This document shows positions 2,404 to 20,059 of a stretch of 20,059 nucleotides of DNA, one piece after another (positions within the stretch are counted from its first letter, which is position 1; each line of letters begins with the position of its first letter). A program made the position numbers and the translations under genes. Origin of the DNA: a virus (taxonomy: Duplodnaviria; Heunggongvirae; Uroviricota; Caudoviricetes); the IMG/VR virus record IMGVR_UViG_2651869749_000005; one strand, given 5' to 3'. Under the pieces are notes generated by a model. It did no database searches and was not told where the DNA came from. It was given only the letters and a program-made list of their open reading frames with translations.

Positions 2404-4979
2404 CGTCCACCTCCGGAGAACAGGCCACCATCACGCATCTGTGCCTGAATTTCATCACGGGCACCCTTGCGGGCCATGTCATACACAGCCTTCAGCGCCT
2501 GTGGTCCAATCTGCCCGTTCGTGCCGTCGTTGTTAATCACCACATGGTTATTCTGCTCAAACTTCCCGGACGCCTGCGACCGGCTGTCCGCCAGACTGCC
2601 CGGTGTACCGACATAACCGCCGGTGGCATAGCCGCGCATCAGCCGGTAAAGATTCCCCACGCCAATCCGGCTGGTTGCCTCCTTCGTGAAGACAAACTCA
2701 CCACGGTGAACAATCCCCGCTGGCTCATATTTGCCGCCGGTTCCCGTAAATCCTCCGGTCGCAAAATGGAATTTCGCCGCAGCTGCCTGAATGGCTGTAC
2801 CGCCTGATGCGGATGCGCCGCCACCAACAGCCCCGCCAATGGCGCTACCGATACTCCCGACAATCCCCACCATTGCCTGCTTAAGCAGAATTTCTGTCAT
2901 CATGGACAGCACGGAACGGGTGAAGCTGCGCCAGTTCTGCTCACTGCCGGTCAGCATCGCCGCCATATTCTGCGCAATACCATCAAAGGTCTGCGTGGCA
3001 GCACTTTTAACCTGCGACATACTGTCCGTGGCACTCTCTTTCCACTCGCTCCAGCCGGACTTCAGGCCTGCCATCCAGCTCCCGCGAAGCTGGTCTTCAG
3101 CCGCCCAGGTCTTTTTCTGCTCTGACATGACGTTATTCAGCGCCAGCGGATTATCGCCATACTGTTCCTTCAGGCGCTGTTCCGTGGCTTCCCGCGCTGC
3201 CTGCCGGTCAGTCAGCCCCCGGCTTTTCGCATCAATAGCTGCCCGTTTTGCCCGTTGTTGCTGTGCGAATTTATCCGCCTGCTGCGCCAGCGCATTCAGA
3301 CGCTCCTGATACGTCACCTTGTCGCCAAGTGCCGCCAGCTGGCGTTTGTACTCCAGCGTCTCGTCTTTATGCGCCAGCAGGGATTTCTCCTGTGCGGATA
3401 GCTGACGACGTTGTGCCGCCTCCTCCAGTACCGCGAACTGACTTTCTGCCTTCCACAAATCCCGGCGCTGCTGGCTGATTTTCTCATTCGCTCCGGCATG
3501 CTTCTCCAGCGTCCGGAGTTCTGCCTGAAGCGTCAGCAGGGCAGCATGAGCACTGTCTTCCTGGCGCTCGCCTGCAGACACCTTCACGCCGGACTGTTTC
3601 GGCTTTTTCAGCGTCGCTTCATAATCCTTTTTCGCTGCCGCCATCAGCGTGTTGTAATCTGCCTGCAGGATTTTTCCGTCTTTCAGTGCCTTGTTCAGCT
3701 CTTCCTGCCGGGCGGTATATTTCTCCAGTGGCGTCAGCAGGCGCTCATACGCCTTCTGCGCCTCTCCGGTATACTTCAGCTGTGACGACTCACGCTCAGC
3801 CCTGTCCCTTGCCGCCAGTTCACCGGCTTTTTCCATATCCGACTGCAGCGTTGCCGCTGCCAGACCCAGACGGGCATTTTCCCGGTCATCCCATGCGCCC
3901 TGAAGGTTGGCCCGGAAAGAGGAGGTTTTACCGCGGCGCTGGCTCCGACTCTGGTACCACTGCCATTTTTTATCCGCCTCATCAAATGCCTTCTGCGCAC
4001 TGGCGAGCATATCCGCTGAGGATTCCGGACGACCGATATCCAGAATGGCATCCCACATCGATTTGAATGCCTTCCCTGTTTTATCCGCCCAGGTCTCCAG
4101 TGTTCCCATGTTTTCTTTCAGGCGACGGGTCTGCTCATCAAAGCCTTTCGTGGCGATATCGTTCGCCGCCTGTAAGGCTCCGGCCTCGTCTCCGGAACGC
4201 TGCAGCTGTGCAACATACGCAATCTGCTCTGCCGTCACGTTACGGAACTGGCGCGCCATCGCCATCAGCCCCGACGTCGGGTCAGTGGTCAGTTTTCCGA
4301 TAGCCTCTGCCACCTTGTCCATCTCCACACCGGATGCAGACGCAAAACGCGCGACACTCTGGTTGATGGCATCAAACTGTTCACCACCACGCACACCGGC
4401 ATTCACCAGGGCTGCCAGTGACTCTCTCGCCTGGTTAAACGTCAGCCCTGCCGCCTGCCCGGCTCTTGAGAGCGTCAGCATACGATCGGCAGTCAGTCCG
4501 GCCTGATTACCGGAAAGAACCAGGGTTTTATTAAACGCTGAAAGCGTGGAATCCCCCTGGTACCAGGCGTACGCCAGCGCACCTGTCGCCACCGCCAGCG
4601 AGGTGACCCCGACCATCGGCAGGGTGATCGCACCGGCAAGCCCCCTGAACATGGGGATCATCCCGCCGAAGGAGTCCTTCACCTGACCGCCCTGTTGCAG
4701 CAGAATAAGCCAGGGATTCTGACCACCGGCAAGCTGCGTGGCGATATCCGTAAACTGTGCGGGCAGGGTTCGCATGGCCGCTTTATACTGCCCGACGGAA
4801 ATCCCGGCTTTTTGTGCAGCCAGCGCCTGGCGGCTCAGGCCCTGTTCAACAGCACTGGCGGTTTTTCTGGCGTCGGTATCCAGACCTGAAAAATGACGCC
4901 TTACCCGGCTCATCTGCTCATCGAAACGGACAGCATCCAGACTCAGGTCAATAACAAGATCACCAACCGGCTGGGACAT
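2400..4979 (-). CDS. H: Tail tape measure protein H
   Basis: 859-aa ORF (lambda H is about 853 aa); long helical Ala/Gln/Arg-rich central region, Gly-rich C-terminus; sits between G/T and M as in lambda. Confidence 0.92.
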   Translation of the reverse strand: MSQPVGDLVIDLSLDAVRFDEQMSRVRRHFSGLDTDARKTASAVEQGLSRQALAAQKAGISVGQYKAAMRTLPAQFTDIATQLAGGQNPWLILLQQGGQVKDSFGGMIPMFRGLAGAITLPMVGVTSLAVATGALAYAWYQGDSTLSAFNKTLVLSGNQAGLTADRMLTLSRAGQAAGLTFNQARESLAALVNAGVRGGEQFDAINQSVARFASASGVEMDKVAEAIGKLTTDPTSGLMAMARQFRNVTAEQIAYVAQLQRSGDEAGALQAANDIATKGFDEQTRRLKENMGTLETWADKTGKAFKSMWDAILDIGRPESSADMLASAQKAFDEADKKWQWYQSRSQRRGKTSSFRANLQGAWDDRENARLGLAAATLQSDMEKAGELAARDRAERESSQLKYTGEAQKAYERLLTPLEKYTARQEELNKALKDGKILQADYNTLMAAAKKDYEATLKKPKQSGVKVSAGERQEDSAHAALLTLQAELRTLEKHAGANEKISQQRRDLWKAESQFAVLEEAAQRRQLSAQEKSLLAHKDETLEYKRQLAALGDKVTYQERLNALAQQADKFAQQQRAKRAAIDAKSRGLTDRQAAREATEQRLKEQYGDNPLALNNVMSEQKKTWAAEDQLRGSWMAGLKSGWSEWKESATDSMSQVKSAATQTFDGIAQNMAAMLTGSEQNWRSFTRSVLSMMTEILLKQAMVGIVGSIGSAIGGAVGGGASASGGTAIQAAAAKFHFATGGFTGTGGKYEPAGIVHRGEFVFTKEATSRIGVGNLYRLMRGYATGGYVGTPGSLADSRSQASGKFEQNNHVVINNDGTNGQIGPQALKAVYDMARKGARDEIQAQMRDGGLFSGGGR

Positions 4980-7000: not shown

Positions 7001-7530
7001 CGTTTTATCGCAATCCTCAGTTGTTGTTTCAGCGCGGATGCCAGTTCTCCGGGCAGGCGTTCACGCCGGATACGGTCAACATTCTCATCAAACGCCTGTT
7101 TCAGTGGGGCCGCCATCGGGATTTTCACCACATCAATAGGGTAACGGTTTTTCCCGGCCACACGCTGCATGACATGCCAGCGACCGTTTTTTAATCGCTG
7201 AATGAATGCCCGCTGATACCGATGCTGACCGGCTTTAAGTATGCTGTTCGGACGACGGCCCAGCATCCTGATCCCCAGCTTAATCACTGGAAGATCACCG
7301 CGGTTAACGATAATTTTTGCGTTCGGATTTCTGACCGTCGCCCGTTTCAGTCTGGACCGTTCCTTAACCAGTTTCCGGCGTACCTTTGTCTCCCGGGCAA
7401 CCTGTGATGAAGACTGATTAATCGCCGTTGTGGCCACGCGGTTAATGGCCATTGCTGAAGCCGCCGGAATGGCGTTTTTACGAACCCGGCTCAGATTGTC
7501 AATCGCCTGATCAAGCCCTTTTATCGCCAT
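6997..7530 (-). CDS. Z: Tail completion protein Z
   Basis: 177-aa ORF in the lambda Z position between FII and U; basic protein. Product assigned by synteny and size. Confidence 0.8.
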   Translation of the reverse strand: MAIKGLDQAIDNLSRVRKNAIPAASAMAINRVATTAINQSSSQVARETKVRRKLVKERSRLKRATVRNPNAKIIVNRGDLPVIKLGIRMLGRRPNSILKAGQHRYQRAFIQRLKNGRWHVMQRVAGKNRYPIDVVKIPMAAPLKQAFDENVDRIRRERLPGELASALKQQLRIAIKR

Positions 7531-9937: not shown

Positions 9938-10049
9938 TGGGACCCCCTTTTGATTTCTTGTTTGACACTTGCAGTTGCCAGACCGCAAGGTGTTTTAACA
10001 AATCAAAAGGGGTTTTAATAACTGGCTCAAAGCTGAAAGCTTTCCAGAA

Positions 10050-10072
10050 CCCCCAGCCTAGCTGGGGGTTTT
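10050..10072 (+). terminator. Hairpin CCCCCAGC-cta-GCTGGGGG followed by TTTT; candidate left-end IS200 terminator hairpin
   Basis: Direct reading; IS200 is known to carry a terminator-like hairpin near the left end upstream of tnpA. Confidence 0.55.
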
Positions 10073-16618: not shown

Positions 16619-16843
16619 ATGTCATCAAAGAACAGAACCCGCAGAACAACAACCCGCAACATCCGATTTCCAAACCAGATAATTGAACAAATTAACATCG
16701 CTCTTGACCTGAAAGGTTCAGGTAATTTTTCAGCGTGGGTTATTGAAGCCTGCAGAAGAAGATTAATTAATGAAAAATATTCTCAATTTGTACCCAACAA
16801 AGACAAACACGACCAGAGCACCTGTTCAGACAGGTTTACTTAA
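16619..16843 (+). CDS. Small ribbon-helix-helix-like DNA-binding protein (possibly DUF3950-type; unverified)
   Basis: 74-aa plus-strand ORF; basic N-terminus, then RNIRFPNQIIEQINIALDLKGSGNFSAWVIEACRRRL, which fits a beta-strand/helix/G-x-S/helix RHH fold; GGGG 8 nt upstream of the ATG; followed by an intrinsic terminator. Confidence 0.6.
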   Translation: MSSKNRTRRTTTRNIRFPNQIIEQINIALDLKGSGNFSAWVIEACRRRLINEKYSQFVPNKDKHDQSTCSDRFT

Positions 16844-16861
16844 ACGACTTATATATGACAC

Positions 16862-16890
16862 AAAAAGCGACCACTAAAGTCGCTTTTTCT
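16862..16890. terminator. Bidirectional intrinsic terminator between the convergent RHH and perC-like genes
   Basis: AAAAAGCGAC-cactaaa-GTCGCTTTTTCTT: 6-bp GC-rich stem flanked by an A-run and a T-run. Confidence 0.75.
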
Positions 16891-16924
16891 TATGGTAACA
16901 GGCAATAACTCTCTCAGATATTTT

Positions 16925-17239
16925 TTAGCATTTTTTTGACCGCGCGTTTCCGGACGTATTCTGTTCTCCTGTCCCTTTATATCGTCGGAATACCCGCCGC
17001 TCTTCAAATCCCATTCCCAACTCAGAATGTAGTCTGTTGACCGCTTGTTTTATTTCGGTCAGGTTCACCGGTGAAACCGGAGTCCGGCGCGCCTTACGCA
17101 AACACTCTGCTCGTTTCTGTGCCGCCACTTTTCTTTTCTGGTCATCACTTAGCTGTACCATCACTTTTGCCCATCGTTCAGCTGCTCTCCGGTACAGTCC
17201 TTTTTTCTCCAGACATTCTGCCACGTGATCATGTAGCAT
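16925..17239 (-). CDS. PerC-family transcriptional regulator homolog (Pch-like)
   Basis: 104-aa ORF MLHDHVAECLEKKGLYRRAAERWAKVM...; the LE.KG.WRRAA.RW signature matches my recollection of PerC/Pch regulators of EPEC/EHEC. Strong GGAGG SD 6 nt upstream; preceded by a roughly 460-bp AT-rich leader. Confidence 0.65.
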   Translation of the reverse strand: MLHDHVAECLEKKGLYRRAAERWAKVMVQLSDDQKRKVAAQKRAECLRKARRTPVSPVNLTEIKQAVNRLHSELGMGFEERRVFRRYKGTGEQNTSGNARSKKC

Positions 17240-17704
17240 AAGTGACCTCCGATTATCTACAGACTGCCATCCTGAATTTACCTTCCCTTAATGAAATAAC
17301 AATAAAAAACAAACCACGCAAAAACAATAAAACAACACACAAAAAAAACTAAATAATAAACAAAAATAATCACCTTATTTTATTATTTTTTGAGGGAGCA
17401 ATTACTGAACAAAAAACGCTGACTATATACTCAAAACCAAACAACTATTCTGCCAATCAGGTATCATGGCAACACACGGAATTACCGTGTTTTTGCCTTC
17501 TCTGCCCATACAATACGGGCATATACTTCATTCTCTATTGTAATATTTCTATCCATGTGCCCCACTCCATTTACCTGTAAATAATATTCAAAATATTTAT
17601 CACAGAAATCGTTTTTGGCCATGAACTGAGCACACTATAAAGTCCGGAACTGACTCTTTGTTAAATTACCTTAACGTTACCAGTAACACCTTCATAACAA
17701 AACA

Positions 17705-18172
17705 TCACGGTATACACTGGGTACGGATATATTCCTGTGCTCCTTCCAGTTGCTTCTGCATTGCCATCAGCCGTTCTCTGAGGATGAAATAATCCCGTTC
17801 AGCGGTGTCTGCCAGTCGGGGGCCGGTTGCATTATCCACGCCGGAGGTGCCGGTGGCTTCACGCACGGTACCGGAGCAGGTGGCGTTGATCCGCAGGCGC
17901 TTACGACCAGCGGCAACATCAGCACGCAGAGTTTCATTTTCAGCTCTCGCATCGGCTAATTCCCTCGAGTATCTGGCATCAAGTGCAGCGACATCACGCT
18001 GGCGTATCTGCATATCAGTAATTGTCGCGTTCGCCAGCTCCAGCTCACTGGCTTTTTTATCGCGCTGCTCTTTGTAGATGATGGCGTGATCACGGTAATG
18101 ATTCAGCCCCAGACTAAGCGCACCACAGGCCACCAGCAGGACAATGATAACCACGCACAGAACACGGTTCAT
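17705..18172 (-). CDS. Rz: Spanin inner-membrane subunit Rz
   Basis: Start placed at the internal Met (MNRVLCVVIIVLLVACGALSLGLNHYRDHAIIYKEQRDK...), 155 aa versus lambda Rz 153 aa, with near-identical core (NHYRD, ITDMQ.RQRDVAALDA, VREAT..SGVDNA..PRLADTAERDYF.LRERL..MQKQLEG). Confidence 0.9.
   Translation of the reverse strand: MNRVLCVVIIVLLVACGALSLGLNHYRDHAIIYKEQRDKKASELELANATITDMQIRQRDVAALDARYSRELADARAENETLRADVAAGRKRLRINATCSGTVREATGTSGVDNATGPRLADTAERDYFILRERLMAMQKQLEGAQEYIRTQCIP
17767..17952 (-). CDS. Rz1: Spanin outer-membrane lipoprotein Rz1, embedded in the +1 frame of Rz
   Basis: 61-aa ORF MRELKMKLCVLMLPLVVSACGST... with lipobox VSAC and Pro-rich mature region CVKPPAPPAWIMQPAPDWQTPLNGIIS, closely matching lambda Rz1. 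Confidence 0.88.
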   Translation of the reverse strand: MRELKMKLCVLMLPLVVSACGSTPPAPVPCVKPPAPPAWIMQPAPDWQTPLNGIISSSENG

Positions 18173-18173
18173 A

Positions 18174-18287
18174 TCACCACCAACGGATTGCCCAGACCAG
18201 AACAGCAATGGCCACAATACGAATGGCAAAAGCTGCCGCTCTTGTTAAATCCAGACTGGCTGGCGTCTCCACTTCAATGCCTTTCAT
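18174..18287 (-). CDS. Hypothetical 37-aa small membrane peptide just upstream of Rz
   Basis: Hand-translated: MKGIEVETPASLDLTRAAAFAIRIVAIAVLVWAIRWW; GAGG SD 9 nt upstream of the ATG; single predicted TM segment with a Trp-rich C-terminus; stop TGA is 1 nt before the Rz ATG. Below the 60-aa cutoff of the ORF track. Confidence 0.4.
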   Translation of the reverse strand: MKGIEVETPASLDLTRAAAFAIRIVAIAVLVWAIRWW

Positions 18288-18389
18288 AATGGACAACCTC
18301 AGAAAGAATCTTTTATACTTCCTCACAGGGAAAGTACCTCCCTACCCATAATTTCTCCCTTGCCTTACTCAAGGTCAGAAAACACAAAA

Positions 18390-18419
18390 CCCCGCTTGCT
18401 GCCGACAAACGGGGTTTTT
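18390..18419. terminator. Intrinsic terminator hairpin between R and Rz (bidirectional appearance)
   Basis: CCCCGCTTG-ctgccga-CAAACGGGG (9-bp stem, one mismatch) followed by TTTTT on the plus strand and preceded by AAAACACAAAA (a U-run on the minus strand). Confidence 0.7.
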
Positions 18420-18507
18420 ACTTTTATTCACTTAGGTTTTACCAGTTTTCAGGATTTCGTGTTATCCACCCGCGTTGGCCAACGTCATTTTTCAGGAAAA
18501 TATTCTG

Positions 18508-19041
18508 CTATCTGTCGATGTCCCTGCACGCCAGCGCGCTCTCCTGGTCACGCCGTGAGACCTGACCGTAGCAATTATTTGAACGGATACGGCAGTCTCT
18601 GCCACCGTCCTTAATCCACCAGCGAATCGCCTCACAGGCACCTTTTCGATCGCCTGCATTAATTCGTTTATAAAACGTCGACGGGAAGCACTTACCGGGG
18701 CCAATGTTGTACGGACAGAATGACGCGATCCCCGCTTTCTGGGGTTCGGTCAGCGGCACCCGGATGTTTTTCTCCACCCATGCCAGCGCCTTGTCACGTT
18801 CGATGGCATTAACCCGGTCGCATTTTTCCTTTGACAGCTTCATGCCAGGAATAACAGGCTTACCATCCACCAGAATGGCACCACGGCAGATGGTCCAGAT
18901 CCCCGCACCATCACGGTATGCCGTGGTGTGGTTACCTTCCTTTTCATCCAGAAACTGGTCGAGGATTTCAGGCGCAGAAGCACCTGCACCAATCAGCGCC
19001 AGAACGGCAGCCGACAGGCCGTATTTTATTTTTTCGTTCAT
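18508..19041 (-). CDS. R: SAR endolysin R (GH24 T4-lysozyme-like with N-terminal signal-anchor-release domain)
   Basis: 177-aa ORF; N-terminal weakly hydrophobic Gly/Ala-rich segment YGLSAAVLALIGAGASAP (SAR-like), then E...D...T catalytic pattern (KEGNHTTAYRDGAGIWTICRG) typical of phage lysozymes. Confidence 0.88.
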   Translation of the reverse strand: MNEKIKYGLSAAVLALIGAGASAPEILDQFLDEKEGNHTTAYRDGAGIWTICRGAILVDGKPVIPGMKLSKEKCDRVNAIERDKALAWVEKNIRVPLTEPQKAGIASFCPYNIGPGKCFPSTFYKRINAGDRKGACEAIRWWIKDGGRDCRIRSNNCYGQVSRRDQESALACRDIDR

Positions 19042-19080
19042 GGGGATTTATCGATTTCTAATCCCTTGATATGTTAGGTA

Positions 19081-19086
19081 TATAAT
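19081..19086 (+). promoter_or_regulatory. Consensus -10 hexamer TATAAT upstream of the plus-strand moron ORF
   Basis: GGTATATAAT at 19077-19086, about 70 nt upstream of the ATG at 19159; no well-spaced -35 (TTGATA is only 9 nt upstream), so promoter assignment is tentative. Confidence 0.4.
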
Positions 19087-19158
19087 CCAACACTCATGGT
19101 CGCTCTCATAAACATATCCCTTGAGACGCAGCAGATTACAACAAATGAAGCCATATAA

Positions 19159-19473
19159 ATGAACAGTAAAGAAAGTTTGCGCAGAAGATTTTTACAACTA
19201 ATGACAGAAAACGTTAAATCAGAGTTACTTCTTCTGATGGCAGATAATAACGAAGCAACAAGCAGCATTCTTGCAGACCCTTACGGTAAGATCTCACATA
19301 AAACGCTGGATATTATTACCACAACATTAACACCGCTGATGCTTCAACGGCTGAAACATAATATCAACGCATGGGTTAATGAAGAATTAAGTCCTCCCTG
19401 CTTATGGGATTCTCGTTACGCATGTCAGCAAAAAATGCGAATTTTCAGCTTACTATCACCAAAGCTCAGGTAG
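19159..19473 (+). CDS. Hypothetical protein encoded on the opposite strand between holin and endolysin (moron); position and size reminiscent of the Qin prophage ydfR, unverified
   Basis: 104-aa plus-strand ORF in a visibly AT-rich block (19042-19728) lacking any long minus-strand ORF; predicted soluble, helical, no TM segment. I do not recognise the sequence. Confidence 0.5.
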   Translation: MNSKESLRRRFLQLMTENVKSELLLLMADNNEATSSILADPYGKISHKTLDIITTTLTPLMLQRLKHNINAWVNEELSPPCLWDSRYACQQKMRIFSLLSPKLR

Positions 19474-19728
19474 CCATAAAATCCTGCCCTTCATGGCATA
19501 CAGGATTTCAATGGAATCACAATGACCAACTCTTGCACAGCTGTATCCCTGACTCCCCGACAACTCAGATTTTCAGTATCTGCTGCTATCTAAAGAGAAA
19601 GCGCACAAATGCAAGGGTCTTTCATCACGTCCTGTTATTGATTGCCTGTGACCTTTTCTTACCTCATGGAACGTTTTTTCAGTTAGAAATATTCATTTTA
19701 CAACCAGTTCGTATTGTTTATTCATCGA

Positions 19729-19935
19729 CTACTCTCCCCGCGCCACCTTACGCTTATCTTCTTTAATCTTGAAATAAAGGTTAGTCAGATACGTCAGCAG
19801 GCCAAACAGCAGACTCCCCAGCACACCGATTGCCACCCACTGGGACGGAGAGACTTTGTCCAGCAGCTGCAGTAACCAGTATCCCGTCCCCACCGCTGAC
19901 GTGGTGTATGACACACCCGTTGTGATTTTTTCCAT
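19729..19935 (-). CDS. S: Class II holin, phage 21 S-type pinholin
   Basis: 68-aa [71 protein letters not shown]; two TM segments and a charged C-terminus, closely resembling S21 as I recall; GGAGA SD upstream. Confidence 0.88.
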
Positions 19936-20059
19936 CTGATGTATGTCTCCGTCACCGCCGACGTAAGCGTACAGCCTGAACCGTCTGGTCAGAATCTGAC
20001 GAATTAGACAAAGTGGTGTCCACCAAATAAGTAGTGGGAACCAAAGTGTCAGATATGCA

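Follow-up and report, generated by a model that had tools for sequence, protein, structure and literature searches.

What occupies the 335 nucleotides (nt) that separate the endolysin gene R from the spanin gene Rz in the lysis cassette of a tailed phage? The question is raised by a 20,059-nt stretch of viral DNA (Caudoviricetes; IMG/VR record IMGVR_UViG_2651869749_000005), the whole of which is called the window here. Its lysis cassette lies on the minus strand in the order holin, a stretch of about 690 bp, lysozyme R, the 335-nt gap, Rz/Rz1 and a PerC/Pch regulator. An initial annotation, made from the letters alone, had taken the gap to be a non-lambda insert, and this was borne out: the gap has the expected extent (18173-18507) and holds a discrete module, which is absent from the Qin prophage of Escherichia coli K-12. 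There, rrrQ overlaps rzpQ, which confirms that related cassettes exist without the insert. The explanation that we prefer, and to which we give about even credence, is that the insert serves phage late operons as a portable accessory cassette, consisting of a terminator hairpin and a gene for a tiny tail-anchored membrane protein that would modulate lysis.

A small membrane-protein gene with two probable in-frame starts

A 37-residue open reading frame (ORF) fills the right-hand part of the gap (18174-18287, minus strand). It begins at ATG 18287, with the Shine-Dalgarno (SD) motif GAGG (18300-18297) 9 nt upstream, and its TGA stop lies 1 nt before the ATG of Rz. Positions 16762-19962 of the window match prophage Sp4 of E. 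coli O157:H7 Sakai at 99.4% identity, and there the ORF has the locus tag ECs_1094; in RefSeq it is annotated as 'hypothetical protein' (WP_000675931.1). It matches phrog_4493 (E = 5.5e-16), a family without an assigned function.

The small ORF is a real gene under strong purifying selection. Two lineages of IMG/VR loci, type A (the window lineage) and type B, were compared over the 37 codons and show 23 differences, 19 of them at third, four at first and none at second codon positions. These amount to 16 synonymous changes and four conservative exchanges among I, L and V. A binomial test of the excess at third positions gives P = 1.7e-6, and the nonsynonymous and synonymous divergences (pN and pS) are 0.054 and 0.67, respectively. 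Across nine unique sequences of the ORF the variable sites are distributed in the same manner: 25 third-position, seven first-position and no second-position sites.

That the SD-preceded 37-residue ORF with its single transmembrane helix is present, selected and placed 1 nt from Rz agrees with the initial annotation, but a longer form of 50 residues is favoured (18174-18326, minus strand). This form begins at GTG 18326, 39 nt upstream of ATG 18287 and behind the SD sequence GGGAGG (18342-18337), and has the N-terminal segment RKYKRFFLRLSI. DNA around six divergent members was added to types A and B, and in all eight lineages an in-frame GTG or ATG with an SD is found 11-13 codons 5' of the internal Met; in three of them a stop codon stands directly before this upstream start. 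The extension is kept as protein, in the form x-Y-[KR]-R-[FI]-[FL]-L-R-L-[ST], through synonymous swaps (AGA/CGA, CTG/TTG and TCC/TCG/TCT/AGT), and the phrog_4493 profile itself reaches 13 residues N-terminal of the 37-residue form. The gene probably starts at GTG 18326, then, and the first 13 codons are probably missing from the RefSeq model.

The internal Met is invariant across the lineages. The Arg codon 7-10 nt 5' of it is AGG or AGA in all eight; the other Arg codon of the extension is mostly CGA. As this is the pattern that selection on an internal SD would produce, the internal SD also appears to be under selection. We infer from this conservation two isoforms, of 50 and 37 residues, translated from the two in-frame starts.

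The layout of the protein is a basic, amphipathic N-terminal segment, present in the long form only (11-13 residues with about five positive charges), then a linker of acidic character and, at the C-terminus, a transmembrane helix that ends in RWW. Kyte-Doolittle hydropathy rises to 2.6 over residues 17-35 of the 37-residue form. From the charge distribution, the protein would be tail-anchored in the inner membrane and have its N-terminus on the cytoplasmic side.

The phrog_4493-type peptide is found in 66 protein clusters, nearly all from E. coli, and a profile search of 1.84 billion representative proteins gave 24 clusters at 50% identity. Divergent members keep the motifs G-[IL]-E-x-[ED]-[AT]-P, AFA[IV]R and a C-terminal [RK]WW, even where they are only 38-56% identical and lie in unrelated genomic contexts. 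Variants truncated to 28 residues and frameshifted copies of the gene exist as well. The family is narrow and is confined to enterobacterial-type phages and prophages. No Pfam match was obtained for the 37-residue form or for nine full-length family members, and none for the peptide in NCBIfam or PADLOC; as regards toxin-antitoxin collections, the Pfam toxin families, NCBIfam and PADLOC held no match. A tblastn search of the peptide against phages covered its first 15 residues only; the low-complexity filter masks the helix.

A hairpin and a gene that travel together

The left end of the module is a GC-rich hairpin (18386-18419) with the stem CCCCG (18390-18394)/CGGGG (18410-18414), flanked by A4 (18386-18389) and T5 (18415-18419), and it has the form of a bidirectional intrinsic terminator. 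The hairpin and T5 tract had been recognised from the start (18390-18419) and are present. Their assignment to the plus strand stands only in part: the hairpin can be read in both directions, but in the window it is more stable on the minus strand, that of the late mRNA (-21.6 kcal/mol vs -14.5 kcal/mol on the plus strand), and a terminator scan scored it on the minus strand only, with 14 pairs. The upper stem shows compensatory changes between lineages. In all eight lineages the hairpin lies 35-65 nt 5' of the long-form start, the genes upstream of it being unrelated. In five of the eight the antisense strand gives the more stable hairpin, slightly in three and clearly in lineages L172 (-22.0 kcal/mol vs -16.4 kcal/mol on the sense strand) and L173 (-22.1 vs -12.8 kcal/mol), and in most lineages U-tracts follow it on the antisense strand.

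Both edges of the module can be placed. On the left the edge is directly 5' of the hairpin: prophage Sp10 of Sakai shares R and the following spacer to 18416 and then continues into an antirepressor gene without the hairpin, and in type B the same hairpin stem is preceded by unrelated sequence. The spacer at 18420-18507 (minus strand) goes, on the same comparisons, with the R gene and not with the module. On the right the edge is the stop codon of the small ORF. Hairpin and ORF move together between unrelated neighbours. Upstream they are found next to genes for a signal-anchor-type lysozyme, a GH108 muramidase, an M15 peptidase, a capsid protein or a tail fibre, and thus behind three unrelated endolysin types; downstream stand Rz, a 60-residue lipoprotein gene (phrog_7528), a lysozyme gene whose start overlaps the stop of the small ORF or, in one myovirus-like lineage, a baseplate gene. 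The small ORF is always co-oriented with a late gene, and six of the eight contexts are lysis cassettes.

The downstream junction is also conserved. In five of the eight contexts (the window, type B, L172, L169 and L173) the ORF ends in TGGTGG and a stop codon, followed after 0-2 nt by the ATG of the next gene; in L174, L175 and L176 the next called gene is further off or its start is only a candidate. The junction sequence TGGTGGTGAnATG is kept before Rz in type A and L172 and before the 60-residue lipoprotein gene in type B. These terminal TGG-TGG-stop codons could be the ribosome-binding site of the downstream gene, here Rz, and because they would double in this way the downstream gene would not be silenced by the insertion.

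Of 5426 complete E. coli genomes, 673 contain the module at a coverage of at least 80% and 2163 contain pieces of it, with several copies per genome; among deposited phages the full insert was found in GER2 only. No publication naming the accession, the locus tag or the peptide sequence was found, and no curated family describes the module. The initial remark that no module had been described at this position therefore holds for the literature, yet the ORF was already annotated (WP_000675931.1/ECs_1094) and the module is far from rare. A scan of one genome per species returned only chance matches and a disrupted copy in Sodalis. The latter is from a metagenome-assembled genome of a Sodalis sp., a degenerate symbiont genome in which the disrupted module occurs twice (L180, about 3290-3313, and L181, about 7421-7444); the hairpin, SD, GTG and opening 15 codons VNYKRILLRLTMKNG are preserved, after which the sequence diverges.

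Between the hairpin and the long-form start a mini-ORF of eight codons (MGREVLSL; 18323-18349, minus strand) can be read from the sequence. It has a strong SD, AAGGGAGAAATT (18350-18361), and its TGA overlaps the GTG of the long form (GTGA). This SD and start are homologous to the start of a phrog_6632 peptide gene that follows the same hairpin in the Stx2a phage EH2201, and the mini-ORF is probably the relic start of another small-peptide gene. A role as a leader peptide was rejected, as the peptide sequence is not conserved and is shortened in some copies, to only four codons in L058 and L070.

No sense promoter-like site was found between the hairpin and the ORF in seven of the eight lineages at a threshold of 8/12 matches, and L174 has one weak sense-strand match, which is inside the ORF. 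Since there is no sense promoter between the two, the peptide would be made only from the Q-antiterminated late transcript. According to the mechanism that we propose, Q-modified, termination-resistant polymerase coming from the late promoter would read through the hairpin, and the peptide would be made together with holin, endolysin and spanin; in the lysogen the hairpin would keep both the peptide and the downstream gene silent. The peptide would insert through its C-terminal helix, leaving the N-terminus in the cytoplasm, and would act on the envelope-disruption step, most plausibly by modulating lysis timing or membrane integrity. As in dual-start holin/antiholin pairs, the two isoforms would oppose each other or act in a graded manner. 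That the module lies in lysis cassettes in six of the eight contexts suggests that it modulates lysis. A small lysis-timing peptide had been one of the first suggestions for this ORF; of this, the lysis-related role fits the location in most lineages, and timing itself is only proposed.

The candidate antisense RNA and the competing explanations

The initial annotation had also drawn attention to a plus-strand promoter, from which a short RNA would run antisense to the 5' leader of the peptide mRNA. The sigma-70-like hexamers, TGGACA-18-TATACT (18290-18319, plus strand; 10/12 matches), are present and are the only such site in 17600-19800. In a comparable region of shuffled sequence about three sites reach a 9/12 threshold, so the candidate promoter taken alone is not beyond chance. 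It is located inside codons 2-13 of the long form, in the conserved Y-K and L-S-I codons. The hexamers are identical in type B and L172 and are invariant over 27 unique leader sequences, in which the spacer between them has four substitutions. A promoter-like site is found at the same codon offset in all eight lineages (10, 10, 10, 9, 9, 10, 8 and 8 of 12 matches), with a -35 element that is poor in half of them.

From this site to the hairpin the hypothetical cis-antisense RNA would be about 94 nt long (18326-18420, plus strand). What it would cover is not simply a 5' leader, as had been supposed, since that region holds the long-form start codon and SD; the short-form start and SD would be left uncovered. 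In the seven lineages measured it is predicted to begin 0-3 nt from the long-form start and to extend over 73-94 nt to the hairpin. The fold of the RNA has a z-score of -3.1, dominated by the terminator. Because its body is poorly conserved, with about 45% divergence between types A and B, it could act only in cis. Rfam searches of the whole window, and a lax search of 17600-19800, gave only sub-threshold terminator-like matches in the insert, and the Sakai catalogue of small RNAs (sRNAs) obtained by Hfq cross-linking and analysis of cDNA (Hfq-CRAC; EcOnc) has no peak at Sakai 1184730-1184860. Identity of the plus-strand RNA with HnrS or any other EcOnc sRNA was rejected, as HnrS is elsewhere and the insert has no EcOnc peak. 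In Sp9, Sp10 and Sp12, HnrS (EcOnc10-12) follows closely after Rz and is encoded on the other strand (in the Sp10 locus, L086, at about 3320-3368, minus strand). No copy was found in the window, to which BLAST of the Sp10 locus aligns only R, Rz, the holin gene and the DUF3950 gene.

Over codons 2-19, types A and B show little synonymous divergence (2/16 codons vs 15/24 elsewhere, Fisher p = 0.003), and the internal translation-initiation region may explain only part of this. When synonymous codons were shuffled with the protein kept, about 50% of draws contained a site of at least 8/12, and a site at least as good as that observed arose in 13-57% of draws for six of the eight lineages; the only outlier was L169 (P of about 0.01-0.02). 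The argument from the promoter is weakened, as the shuffle so often yields comparable sites, and the antisense hexamers are most simply seen as largely a by-product of the Y-K-R...L-S codons. Conservation of the 38 nt upstream of the ATG as a promoter was rejected for the same reason, the shuffle removing most of the argument, and because these nucleotides are coding. We regard the existence of the antisense RNA as a serious possibility but a doubtful one.

Were this RNA made, the peptide could be gated by it in a manner like that of type I toxin-antitoxin pairs. The RNA of 73-94 nt would pair with the late mRNA at the long-form start codon and SD and would block or cleave the 50-residue form, the start of the 37-residue form would stay free, and the hairpin would travel with the ORF as the terminator of the antisense gene. 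This explanation is possible, though we hold it only tentatively. It draws on the promoter-like site at one offset in eight of eight lineages, with hexamers invariant in 27 leaders, but the site is poor in its -35 element in half of the lineages and is matched at 8/12 or better in about half of the codon-shuffled draws, with only L169 unusual. A hairpin that is stronger on the antisense strand in L172 and L173, together with antisense U-tracts in most lineages, would suit an antisense terminator; in the window, on the other hand, the hairpin is weaker on the plus strand and was not scored as a terminator there. The constant geometry (0-3 nt to the long-form start and 73-94 nt to the hairpin) and the low synonymous divergence over the promoter stretch also speak for an antisense gene, as do the size, transmembrane helix and charged or bulky C-terminus of the peptide, which are listed for type I toxins (PMC2887945). 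Set against these are the lack of an Hfq-CRAC sRNA called at the locus in Sakai or of an Rfam family, and the sister peptide genes at the same junction of other prophages, which stand in tight arrays with no room for antisense genes of their own. As for the type I toxin-antitoxin pair that the initial annotation had in mind, there is no sense promoter, no toxin family and no Hfq-bound sRNA at the Sakai locus, and such a reading of the insert is possible but not supported. A true type I pair that stands alone as an addiction or defence module, serving prophage maintenance or abortive infection, unrelated to lysis and simply housed in a permissive junction, is improbable. The mobility of the module, its several copies per genome and its occasional place outside lysis cassettes would suit such a role, and prophage Sp5 of enterohaemorrhagic E. 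coli (EHEC) has a validated type I pair, hokW-sokW, that affects phage release (PMC8621323), but no promoter for a toxin was found, the ORF invariably has the orientation of a late gene and is 0-2 nt from it in five of the eight contexts, PADLOC and the Pfam toxin families gave no match, and the antisense partner is only a candidate.

It is also unlikely that the insert is a mobile lysis modulator whose isoform ratio is set by a cis-antisense RNA arising from the first codons and masking the long-form start only. In this reading the element would hop between the late operons of unrelated phages, with a terminator at one end and, at the other, the TGG-TGG-stop ribosome-binding site for the gene before which it lands. 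If true, the accessory elements of phages would gain a new class, in which isoform control of the holin kind is combined with type I toxin-antitoxin architecture. Hardest to credit is a decaying remnant, that is a non-functional recombination scar between lysis cassettes with an ORF that arose by chance. The apparent relic start in the leader, the 28-residue truncated variants, the frameshifted copies and the disrupted Sodalis copy would all be expected of a remnant, but purifying selection is strong over about 50% synonymous divergence, the motifs are kept in relatives of 38-56% identity in unrelated contexts, and the SDs and starts are conserved. The substitution pattern already refutes this explanation, barring selection on the opposite strand, and the opposite strand of the small ORF has no conserved ORF.

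Several points weigh against the portable accessory cassette. The hairpins of L172 and L173 are poor sense terminators and good antisense ones, which fits better with an antisense RNA than with a sense insulator. The low synonymous divergence over codons 2-19 points to an extra constraint at the nucleotide level. Both translation starts are deduced from conservation only. The C-terminus is RWW without the long charged tail of the holin type, and no holin family is matched. Finally, as the gene stands before a baseplate gene in one lineage and is isolated in another, the link with lysis is frequent and not absolute.

Relation to known systems, neighbouring genes and significance

With the accessory cassette as the preferred explanation, the peptide can be compared with known lysis proteins. 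Dual-start holin/antiholin pairs are exemplified by lambda S105/S107 and phage 21 S68/S71. Like these, the peptide is a small membrane protein of the lysis cassette; it would also have two in-frame starts, the longer product having extra positive charge at the N-terminus. In contrast, its extension is 11-13 residues with about five positive charges, where that of the holin pairs is 2-3 residues; its single helix is at the extreme C-terminus, without a charged C-terminal tail; and its gene is downstream of the endolysin gene, in a cassette that already has its own holin. Neither the 37-residue form nor the nine full-length members matched a Pfam holin family. By analogy, the peptide may work like a holin/antiholin-type regulator without belonging to those families.

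LysA of P2 and gp25 ('releasin') of Mu are accessory lysis membrane proteins that tune lysis, look non-essential and are encoded beside endolysin and spanin genes. P2 lysA lies between the endolysin gene K and the spanin gene lysB, and LysA is multi-spanning and much larger than the present peptide; releasin acts on a signal-anchored endolysin. A description of Mu releasin is given in PMC9239132. The peptide resembles both in being a membrane protein encoded next to endolysin and spanin genes. It differs in that no sequence relationship with either was detected and, from releasin, in that it also follows soluble GH108 and M15 endolysins. It differs from the spanins too, having only 13-29 residues outside the helix and no lipobox, with Rz and Rz1 separately present.

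Type I toxins are described as hydrophobic proteins of fewer than 60 residues with a transmembrane segment and a charged or bulky C-terminus (PMC2887945). The peptide, with 50 or 37 residues, is of this kind: hydrophobic, with a transmembrane helix and a C-terminus that is charged and bulky. The prophage setting is shared with hokW-sokW of Sakai Sp5 (PMC8621323), and the 5'-overlapping RNA of the antisense-gated model would have the architecture of symE/SymR (PMC4147584). Unlike symE/SymR and hok/Sok, however, the peptide gene is without a promoter of its own and lies within a late operon, where in most contexts it adjoins the next gene directly, and the peptide has no homology to Hok, Ldr, Ibs, TisB, ShoB, Zor, Fst or other toxin families. 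Among the EHEC prophage sRNAs, AgvB, AsxR, HnrS and StxS are likewise short terminator-ended transcripts at conserved lambdoid late positions, some of them antisense, but none maps to the R-Rz insert, and the candidate RNA has a U5 tail and no recorded Hfq peak.

The moron concept of Juhala et al. 2000, in the words quoted in PMC4104026, is also relevant. As with morons (bor, lom and stx), the extra DNA stands cleanly between two genes, occurs in some lambdoid late operons and is absent from close relatives. Morons, however, have their own upstream promoter, a downstream terminator and expression in the lysogen, whereas here the terminator is upstream and no sense promoter was found; a further difference is that translation passes from the 3' end of the small ORF to the next gene. 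The element is best placed between moron-like insertions and the accessory membrane proteins of lysis cassettes, and its portable design is unusual.

Other genes of the cassette were assigned as follows. The holin (19935-19729, minus strand) is of the phage-21 type (Pfam Phage_holin_2_1). Lysozyme R (18508-19041, minus strand; Pfam Phage_lysozyme, E = 7.6e-24; phrog_7, endolysin) has 177 residues and a signal-anchor-like N-terminus, and is labelled 'lysozyme/rrrQ' in RefSeq; it is the upstream neighbour of the module and lies outside it. Rz, an i-spanin of 155 residues starting at ATG 18172 (17705-18172, minus strand; Pfam Phage_lysis, E = 8e-49), has Rz1 embedded in it (17952-17767, minus strand; Pfam Rz1, E = 1.7e-21). 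In Sakai, Rz is modelled with 174 residues (ECs_1092) from a TTG at window position 18229, which overlaps the small ORF in another frame; this model probably starts too early, the 155-residue form from ATG 18172 fitting the Rz family end to end. The stretch of about 690 bp between holin S and lysozyme R (19042-19728) is a second insert and holds an ORF of 104 residues in the opposite orientation (19159-19473, plus strand; phrog_1853, function not assigned; Sakai ECs_1097). A YnfO-like DUF3950 gene (16619-16843, plus strand) lies directly downstream of the lysis cassette, beside the gene of the PerC-family regulator (16925-17239, minus strand; Pfam PerC, E = 3.8e-44), which is pchA in Sakai Sp4. 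Elsewhere in the window a full-length match to the Hfq-binding sRNA STnc490 of Rfam was found at 9947-10070 (minus strand), with 146 bits against a gathering score of 56.

In other E. coli prophages the endolysin-Rz junction is occupied by between one and four different tiny ORFs, each for a single helix and either alone or closely packed in arrays of three or four; they belong to phrog_6632, 4906, 1115 and a truncated 28-residue form of 4493. Such ORFs were found in L091 (2096-2659), L084 (phage vB_EcoS-569R3; 1673-2138), L083 (1575-1793) and L086 (2625-2771), and the tiny ORFs that adjoin Rz in them also end in IRWW. L175 (2430-3410), from a metagenomic phage rich in GC, has three copies of a hairpin of about 38 nt, each followed by one or two small transmembrane ORFs: one member of the present family, one paralogue and a 32-residue peptide ending in VRWW. 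This series comes directly after the capsid gene and ends at a signal-anchor-type lysozyme gene.

Type B loci (L057-L082; for example L066, 1008-3311) have two holins, a GH108 or M15 endolysin and no recognisable Rz/Rz1. Their spanin slot is occupied by the small peptide gene and the 60-residue lipoprotein gene (phrog_7528), whose product has three Cys and the lipobox LVGC; bor comes next, on the opposite strand. The slot with this lipoprotein may be an undescribed outer-membrane disruption component. A mini-spanin composed of the peptide and the lipoprotein was rejected, as the length of the peptide does not suffice to cross the periplasm and the same peptide precedes full Rz/Rz1 in the window.

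About one in eight complete E. coli genomes, including that of O157:H7 Sakai, thus carries a conserved, selected and unstudied gene, and although the lysis of lambdoid phages is thought to be well understood, this gene sits between endolysin and spanin. For annotation, the lesson is that the RefSeq model of the peptide is probably 13 codons short and that the Sakai model of Rz probably starts early. The junction is shared by several unrelated families of tiny single-helix proteins, PHROGs 4493, 1115, 3246, 6632 and 4906, none with an assigned function. The cassette is a compact example of how a gene can be gained without breaking an operon, bringing its own terminator and donating a ribosome-binding site to the gene downstream. 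If peptides of this kind tune lysis timing or membrane integrity, they would have effects on phage burst, on the release of Shiga toxin and on engineered lysis cassettes.

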